DNA of 64,000 nt from Escherichia coli (GTDB lineage Bacteria > Pseudomonadota > Gammaproteobacteria > Enterobacterales > Enterobacteriaceae): NCBI RefSeq assembly GCF_003334305.1, contig NZ_QOWS01000003.1, one strand, 5' to 3'. Both the position numbers and the translations under genes were made by a program. Shown here in pieces: positions 52,875 through 52,932 of the stretch. Under the pieces are notes generated by a model, which saw only the letters and a list, made by a program, of their open reading frames with translations, made no database searches and was not told where the DNA came from. Every line of letters starts with the position of its first letter. Within the stretch, counting starts at the first letter, position 1.

Positions 52875-52891
52875 GTGTTCTCCTTATGAGC

Positions 52892-52921
52892 AAAAAAGGG
52901 AAGTGGCAAGCCACTTCCCTT
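52892..52921 (-). terminator. intrinsic terminator of cadBA
   Basis: 11-bp perfect inverted repeat AAGGGAAGTGG-CAA-GCCACTTCCCTT followed on the minus strand by a T run; 12 nt after the cadA stop. Confidence 0.75.
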
Positions 52922-52932
52922 GTACGAGCTAA

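Follow-up and report, generated by a model that had tools for sequence, protein, structure and literature searches.

Our analysis indicates that the intrinsic terminator separating cadA from dtpC in Escherichia coli is strong but leaky, and that it probably works as a fixed step-down valve through which dtpC becomes a low-level distal member of the cadBA unit. The window, i.e. the whole stretch of 64,000 nucleotides of E. coli DNA that was analysed, carries on its minus strand the genes cadB (lysine:cadaverine antiporter, 55160-56494), cadA (inducible lysine decarboxylase of 715 amino acids, 52933-55080), dtpC (also named yjdL, proton-coupled dipeptide permease of 485 amino acids, 51417-52874) and, as the next gene downstream of dtpC, lysU (stress-inducible lysyl-tRNA synthetase, 49663-51180). 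These assignments are based on the list of open reading frames and on the annotation of identical E. coli records: the genes match annotated E. coli chromosomes at 100%, and the 3.9-kb segment around the junction is 100% identical to many complete genomes in which cadB, cadA and dtpC are annotated. The reference strain MG1655 has cadC, cadB, cadA, dtpC (yjdL) and lysU in the same order and on the same strand, and adding 4,303,537 to a window coordinate gives the MG1655 coordinate. The first gene of the acid- and lysine-induced cadBA unit is cadB, and the CadC-dependent promoter (PcadBA) is located upstream of it. The dipeptides preferred by DtpC carry lysine at their C-terminus (PMC9309889, PMC3478282), and LysU is induced by acid and shows a lower sensitivity to cadaverine (PMC5078493); the gene cluster is thus, overall, themed on lysine and acid.

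Just past cadC, a frameshifted integrase fragment (yjdQ in K-12) is located beside the tRNA-Phe gene pheU (window ~58650-59100; 11358-11790 in locus L001), which makes the yjdQ/pheU site an integration hot-spot remnant bordering the cad cluster. The cadA-dtpC segment is missing from some 200-216 of 5426 complete E. coli genomes, which is consistent with the cad losses known from some pathotypes. Three matches to this segment in the E. coli collection are on records typed as plasmids.

The spacer between cadA and dtpC has a size of 58 nt (52875-52932, corresponding to MG1655 4,356,412-4,356,469). Reading along the minus strand, the cadA stop codon TAA (52935-52933) is followed after 11 nt by the 5' arm of a hairpin, AAGGGAAGTGG (52921-52911), a 4-nt loop CTTG (52910-52907) and the 3' arm CCACTTCCCTT (52906-52896). 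The 11-bp stem of this terminator hairpin (52896-52921), which we delimited from sequence, fold, conservation and covariation, is composed of a G+C-rich core of 9 bp, GGGAAGTGG/CCACTTCCC, plus two A-U pairs. The tract of six consecutive T residues (52892-52897; a U tract in the RNA), which is followed by GCTCAT, overlaps the stem, such that two of the six T residues are base-paired to the AA at the foot of the stem and the other four extend past the 11-bp stem. The original prediction had placed an 11-bp palindrome plus T tract at 52892-52921 on the minus strand, and both its coordinates and its description proved accurate. The Shine-Dalgarno sequence of dtpC, AAGGAG (52880-52885, minus strand), is separated by 5 nt (AACAC) from the dtpC ATG at 52874. 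Since the last T of the tract is only 6 nt from this Shine-Dalgarno sequence, and 17 nt from the ATG, the view that the dtpC ribosome-binding site and start almost adjoin the terminator was likewise borne out.

Several lines of evidence show that the hairpin is real and did not arise by chance. Terminator-like sites as a class are not enriched in the region 51000-58500, in which 9 were found as compared to 7.0 +/- 2.7 in shuffled sequences; the cadA-dtpC hairpin is the top-ranked of these sites, with 11 pairs, 6 of which are G-C. Its folding energy ranges from -19.8 to -22.6 kcal/mol, and the predicted fold of the 86-nt junction (-22.6 kcal/mol) has a z-score of -2.77 and leaves the dtpC Shine-Dalgarno sequence free of pairing. 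No second copy of the hairpin sequence exists in the 64-kb window at up to 3 mismatches (0 matches expected), and the 121-nt junction is present as a single copy per E. coli genome and is at least 99% identical in 5192 of 5210 genomes. In addition, the hairpin is conserved in other Enterobacterales through compensatory changes, as described below.

The element has the features of an intrinsic (Rho-independent) terminator: a G+C-rich stem-loop with a U-rich tract directly behind it on the strand that is transcribed, covarying base pairs on the sense strand, and a sharp drop in RNA abundance from cadA to dtpC, as seen in gene-level RPKM values and not in single-nucleotide coverage. Other classes were considered and rejected. 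A regulated attenuator or riboswitch does not agree with the minimum-energy and centroid folds, which consist of the terminator hairpin alone, extended by pairing between an A tract and the U tract; no alternative antiterminator structure is apparent in the predicted fold of the junction, and an Rfam search of 50500-58500, judged by E-value, gave no relevant regulatory RNA, the one match being a chance-level snoRNA elsewhere. A small RNA derived from the 3' UTR and sharing the terminator is contradicted by the lack of synonymous constraint in the last 100 cadA codons and the lack of an Rfam match, and the variation among genera of the sequence between cadA stop and stem counts against a small RNA seed. 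A REP/BIME repeat is at odds with the uniqueness of the hairpin in the window and the single occurrence of the 121-nt junction per E. coli genome, and a bidirectional terminator with the plus strand, which has no T run closer than 14 nt to the stem and no convergent gene.

The arrangement is conserved well beyond E. coli. Taking one genome per species, we compiled 54 loci with DtpC relatives of 66-99% identity, which cover Escherichia, Klebsiella, Raoultella, Kluyvera, Buttiauxella, Trabulsiella, Pluralibacter, Yokenella, Salmonella arizonae and diarizonae, Shimwellia and Serratia. In each of the 52 loci whose upstream DNA is long enough, the gene directly preceding dtpC is cadA, in the same orientation, and cadB is upstream of cadA in every related locus whose flank extends that far; lysU is found downstream of dtpC in some genera only. 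The cadA-dtpC spacer has a size of 54-72 nt in 39 related loci. The hairpin is kept in 48 of the 52 related junctions, with a gap of 5-15 nt between stop codon and stem in 47 of these 48 loci (125 nt in L041) and, in most related loci, 21-24 nt between the stem end and the dtpC ATG. In a 40-row alignment, 99.5% of the stem cells are paired as compared to 48-72% in slid controls, a percentage that is partly by construction because the rows were chosen by a stem-finding script. Five of the 11 stem pairs have changed on both sides (for example, from U-A to C-G or G-C), and the G-U wobbles in the stem pair on the cadA-sense strand only, since they correspond to C-A mismatches on the other strand. 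These two-sided changes and strand-specific wobbles mark an RNA hairpin on the cadA-sense strand that is under selection.

The length of the T run is more variable: 5-7 in most genera, 3-4 in most Serratia-type loci, 3 in L034 and L037, 1 in L052, and 0 in L036 and L041. The Serratia and related loci L042, L043, L045, L046, L051, L055 and L056 retain the hairpin, but its sequence, GGGGAGGCG/CGCTTCCCC (spacer ~3935-4000), is shifted and includes G-U pairs, and the T run that follows has only 3-4 nt, CCCCTTTGTCG. This predicts that the terminator leaks much more in Serratia and that cadBA-dtpC is closer to an operon there. Seven loci (L010, L025, L049, L034, L036, L037 and L041) contain G+C-rich palindromes resembling REP/BIME elements between the hairpin and the dtpC Shine-Dalgarno sequence, examples being GCCGGGTGGCG...CGCCGCCGGGC and TAGGCCGGGTAAGCG; these inserts, located in the spacer at ~3855-4000 of each locus, stretch it to 92-212 nt, and the T tract is eroded in the insert-bearing loci L036 (0 T) and L037 (3 T). 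In four other loci (L018, L029, L030 and L033) the hairpin has been replaced by such palindromes. The presence of inserts in several genera shows that tight cadA-dtpC spacing is not obligatory. Finally, two loci, L039 of Kluyvera genomosp. 3 and L052 of Serratia rubidaea, have a cadA match split into overlapping or partial pieces and a truncated dtpC match (residues 61-453 in L039 and 1-274 in L052); cadA and dtpC may be decaying together in these strains, or there may be an assembly error.

Published expression data show that dtpC is co-regulated with cadBA. In RNA-seq data of MG1655 (PMC10746267, Tables S3 and S5), the mean RPKM values at pH 4.4, 5.8 and 7.6 are 1469, 311 and 3.6 for cadB; 2322, 535 and 3.3 for cadA; 79, 11 and 4.8 for dtpC; and about 25, 30 and 30 for cadC. 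In the same study, the ribosome-footprint RPKM of dtpC is 132, 9.3 and 5.9, with a translation efficiency of about 1.7 at pH 4.4. Hence, dtpC RNA is induced 2.3-fold at pH 5.8 and 16-fold at pH 4.4, and its footprints 22-fold. A side observation from this dataset concerns cadC (window 56859-58397), whose footprints are about 1.3 RPKM at pH 4.4 (translation efficiency about 0.05) versus about 3.7 at pH 7.6, meaning that its translation drops in severe acid while its targets are maximal. The increment of dtpC amounts to 1.15% of the cadA increment at pH 5.8 and to 3.2% at pH 4.4, values that are ~2.8-fold apart and that give an apparent termination efficiency of about 97-99%, bearing in mind that the ratios of steady-state RNA depend on mRNA stability as well as on termination. 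The original prediction called the terminator strong, which agrees with an apparent readthrough of just ~1-3% of cadA RNA. At the basal level at pH 7.6, dtpC RNA (4.8 RPKM) is not below cadA RNA (3.3 RPKM), and the basal dtpC signal is therefore either independent of PcadBA or mere background.

Microarray data from strain W3110 shifted from pH 7.6 to 5.5 (PMC2270276) provide the time course. The log2 ratios at 1, 5 and 10 min after the shift are 0.18, 3.08 and 4.69 for cadB; -0.02, 1.24 and 3.19 for cadA; 0.12, 1.22 and 2.65 for yjdL; and 0.05, 0.68 and 0.90 for lysU. It should be noted that the table of this study is misaligned near the lys rows, and that we matched the ratio columns to the gene names, as the tRNA genes then agree. 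Thus, yjdL tracks cadA nearly point for point after the acid shift. In the array intensities yjdL is also near cadA in absolute signal, which, if taken literally, would mean far more readthrough than the RNA-seq data suggest, but intensities are unreliable when compared across genes on an array. Furthermore, dtpC and cadB both fall in simulated intestinal fluid (PMC12922286). Together, the RNA-seq, Ribo-seq and array data uphold the proposed link of dtpC to the lysine and acid response, in that dtpC rises with cadBA and tracks cadA after an acid shift.

Where does the transcription of dtpC start? Scanning with sigma-70-type consensus sequences, which is the scope of all our promoter searches, we found in the window no sigma-70-like -35/-10 pair that would start a transcript after the 5' arm of the hairpin, nor a -10-like hexamer with A2 and T6 in such a position. 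In the same scan across genera, only 1 of 53 junctions had a post-hairpin match (8/12), and this was in a locus with a REP insertion. All 53 junctions have an SD-like motif no more than 16 nt away from the dtpC ATG. As judged by this consensus, dtpC is accordingly co-directional with cadA and has no promoter between the terminator and its start. A promoter overlapping the hairpin, made up of TTGCCA (52909-52904) and CATAAG (52888-52883), was rejected: the 15-nt spacing is too short, the -10 element does not have the final T, the transcript would lose the Shine-Dalgarno sequence, and other genera read CACGCTGCA; the scan agrees. The original prediction offered two options, a dtpC promoter inside the 3' coding region of cadA or readthrough of the cadBA terminator. 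Its premise that there is no room for a promoter past the terminator held up. The two options are, however, not true alternatives, because a promoter inside cadA would still be upstream of the hairpin, and all dtpC transcripts must then read through the terminator.

It is nevertheless conceivable that dtpC has an acid-responsive promoter of its own inside the cadA coding region, and that its co-induction with cadBA reflects a shared signal instead of a shared transcript; the hairpin would attenuate such transcripts too. On the one hand, dtpC RNA being at least at the level of cadA RNA at pH 7.6 (4.8 versus 3.3 RPKM) points to some PcadBA-independent transcription, the ratio of the dtpC and cadA increments differs ~2.8-fold between pH 5.8 and 4.4, and a weak candidate, ATGGTA-17-TATGAT, is found by relaxed criteria 254 nt upstream of the dtpC ATG. 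On the other hand, a stricter scan (9/12 match to the sigma-70 consensus) gave no minus-strand match in 52875-54642, a stretch that takes in the 3' 1.7 kb of cadA, and the two relaxed matches are uninformative, one having a -10 element fixed by Asn-Met-Ile codons and the other being kept in 10 of 45 species only. In addition, the synonymous-site entropy over 45 non-redundant cadA orthologues (45 species), which served as a test for embedded elements, revealed no excess conservation in the last 100 cadA codons. The lowest raw entropy was found at codons 521-575, which are rich in Leu, Phe, Lys and Asn and use strongly preferred codons; a conserved element at this position was rejected because the permutation p value is 0.77 once amino-acid composition is controlled. 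The kinetics of yjdL, which are close to those of cadA at 5 and 10 min, also speak against a separate promoter. We therefore consider a promoter inside cadA unlikely, though worth keeping in mind. The supplements of published term-seq (PMC7815308) and SMRT-Cappable-seq (PMC6131387) studies contain no entry for cadA, dtpC or yjdL; the cad genes were most likely silent there.

The reading that we prefer, a leaky terminator acting as a step-down valve, would work as follows. The hairpin and U tract (52921-52892, minus strand) are the intrinsic terminator of the cadBA transcript and, judged by steady-state RNA, stop about 97-99% of the polymerases. Having no promoter of its own past the hairpin, dtpC would be transcribed only by those polymerases that pass it. 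In acid (plus lysine) CadC would activate cadBA several hundred-fold, and a leak of a few per cent would then bring dtpC to a moderate and well-translated level. The dtpC Shine-Dalgarno sequence, 6 nt past the U tract and predicted to be unpaired, would be accessible and permit translation of the leaked RNA. The valve would thereby set the CadA:DtpC stoichiometry at roughly 30-90 to 1, and DtpC, as an importer of X-Lys dipeptides, would be the distal low-level member of a lysine-dependent acid-resistance unit. A leak of ~1-3% matters only by virtue of the several hundred-fold induction of cadBA and of a basal dtpC level close to background. We infer that the induced dtpC RNA starts at PcadBA and that peptide-derived lysine would feed CadA; in our literature search, the CadC dependence of dtpC induction was found in no report, and neither were long-read, RT-PCR or cadC-mutant data for the junction.

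A point against a fixed leak is that the dtpC share is not constant (1.15% at pH 5.8 versus 3.2% at pH 4.4). This might be an indication of conditional readthrough, in which termination would be modulated, for example by the distance between ribosome and RNA polymerase, and the dtpC share would rise with the severity of the acid stress. It has been reported that a trailing ribosome partly represses terminators located less than about 27-30 nt from the stop codon (PMC4824070). The gap of 11 nt between cadA stop codon and hairpin is inside this range, as are the distances of 5-15 nt in 47 of the 48 hairpin-bearing relatives, and the ribosome that terminates 11 nt upstream of the hairpin may account for some of the leak. 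However, the difference in leak is derived from two conditions of one study, in which steady-state RPKM values also reflect mRNA decay, short distances between stop codons and terminators are common in compact bacterial genomes, and neither an antiterminator structure in the fold nor a regulatory RNA in Rfam speaks for modulation. Conditional readthrough as the main explanation is accordingly, in our opinion, rather improbable. Least of all do we favor the view that this is a plain cadBA terminator abutted by dtpC by chance, and that the acid signal of dtpC is noise: although dtpC RNA is merely 2-3% of cadA RNA, a triple dtpA dtpB dtpC mutant colonised mice like the wild type (PMC10936423), and the DtpC structural and biochemical papers do not mention the cad system, this is very improbable given the cadA-dtpC adjacency in 52 of 52 informative loci with a short spacer kept despite repeat insertions in some, the real protein synthesis evident from DtpC footprints of 132 RPKM and a translation efficiency of ~1.7 at pH 4.4, and the match between the X-Lys dipeptide preference of DtpC and the substrate of CadA.

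Returning to the leaky terminator, the transcripts that pass it might continue toward lysU, since the AT-rich dtpC-lysU spacer (51181-51416, minus strand) contains no strong intrinsic terminator after dtpC. Within this spacer we noted a 9-bp hairpin, GAGGCAGAT...ATCTGTCTC, at 51223-51254 (minus strand), which has a 14-nt loop, is followed by TTTATCT and is located ~35 nt upstream of the lysU start. The lysU gene itself is modestly acid-induced (log2 +0.9 at 10 min in the array data of PMC2270276). In Pseudescherichia and relatives (L029, L030 and L033, ~5461-5488), lysU starts ~27 nt after dtpC as compared to 236 nt in E. coli, a distance that suggests a tighter coupling of dtpC and lysU in these bacteria.

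A more far-reaching version of our proposal, which we put forward only tentatively, is that DtpC is a third component of lysine-dependent acid resistance and that the terminator is a tuned, possibly translation-sensitive valve, the leak of which would grow with acid and may reach lysU. If DtpC were indeed such a third component, peptide-derived lysine would fuel CadA when free lysine is scarce.

The terminator downstream of cadA has reportedly been known since the first sequencing of the cad operon in the early 1990s, and it appears that the dependence of dtpC on it has not been stated before. Our literature search found no paper that contains both dtpC and cadA as whole words, and the sole paper found with both yjdL and cadBA lists them in tables without comment on a link; likewise, none of the expression studies used here (PMC10746267, PMC2270276 and PMC12922286) comments on a link between cad and dtpC. 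Papers on negamycin uptake and on TraDIS that name the genes have no bearing on such a link. No phenotype tying dtpC to acid resistance was found in the literature, and dtpC was listed as part of the Cad (AR4) module in no paper that we found. If our proposal is true, it would provide a physiological role for DtpC, a protein that is well studied structurally and biochemically, and whose preference for dipeptides ending in lysine was given no explanation in the literature searched. The proposal would also account for the finding of yjdL/dtpC in transcriptomes of acid stress, and it points to peptides as a source that the Cad system can use besides free lysine. Although annotated separately, cadBA and dtpC probably form one attenuated unit, and this matters for the polar effects of insertions and deletions in cadA and cadB, as well as for strains used in cadaverine production. 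The mechanism of a leaky intrinsic terminator is itself textbook knowledge, and the arrangement is fairly ordinary and will not surprise the specialist; its usefulness lies in the annotation and in a plausible physiological role for DtpC.

Partial intrinsic terminators within transcription units are well known, examples being the rplKAJL-rpoBC attenuator and the internal terminator of rpsU-dnaG-rpoD. As in these cases, a G+C-rich hairpin and a U tract are located between co-directional genes at the cadA-dtpC junction, and the spacer offers no promoter to dtpC, which follows the regulation of the upstream genes at a far lower level. The cadA-dtpC junction differs from these operon-internal terminators in that the drop is very steep (~30-90-fold), and in that cadBA and dtpC are annotated and generally treated as separate units; their co-transcription is a proposal. 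A second comparison can be made with the tR2 reporter of Li et al. (PMC4824070): like the reporter terminators, the cadA hairpin lies close to a stop codon (11 nt, within the range of <27-30 nt). Unlike them, however, it is not repressed to any great extent, as repression was nearly complete for reporter terminators at a distance of a few bp from the stop codon, whereas termination at the cadA hairpin is ~97-99%; the effect of the ribosome on the cadA terminator in vivo, if any, is therefore small. Finally, dtpC resembles the Cad (AR4) module, i.e. the CadC-activated cadBA genes, in that it is present at the same locus, on the same strand and is expressed under the same inducing conditions. 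DtpC would fit this module because it could supply the substrate of CadA from X-Lys dipeptides, and the downstream gene lysU would fit as well, being also acid-induced and encoding a cadaverine-tolerant enzyme (PMC5078493).
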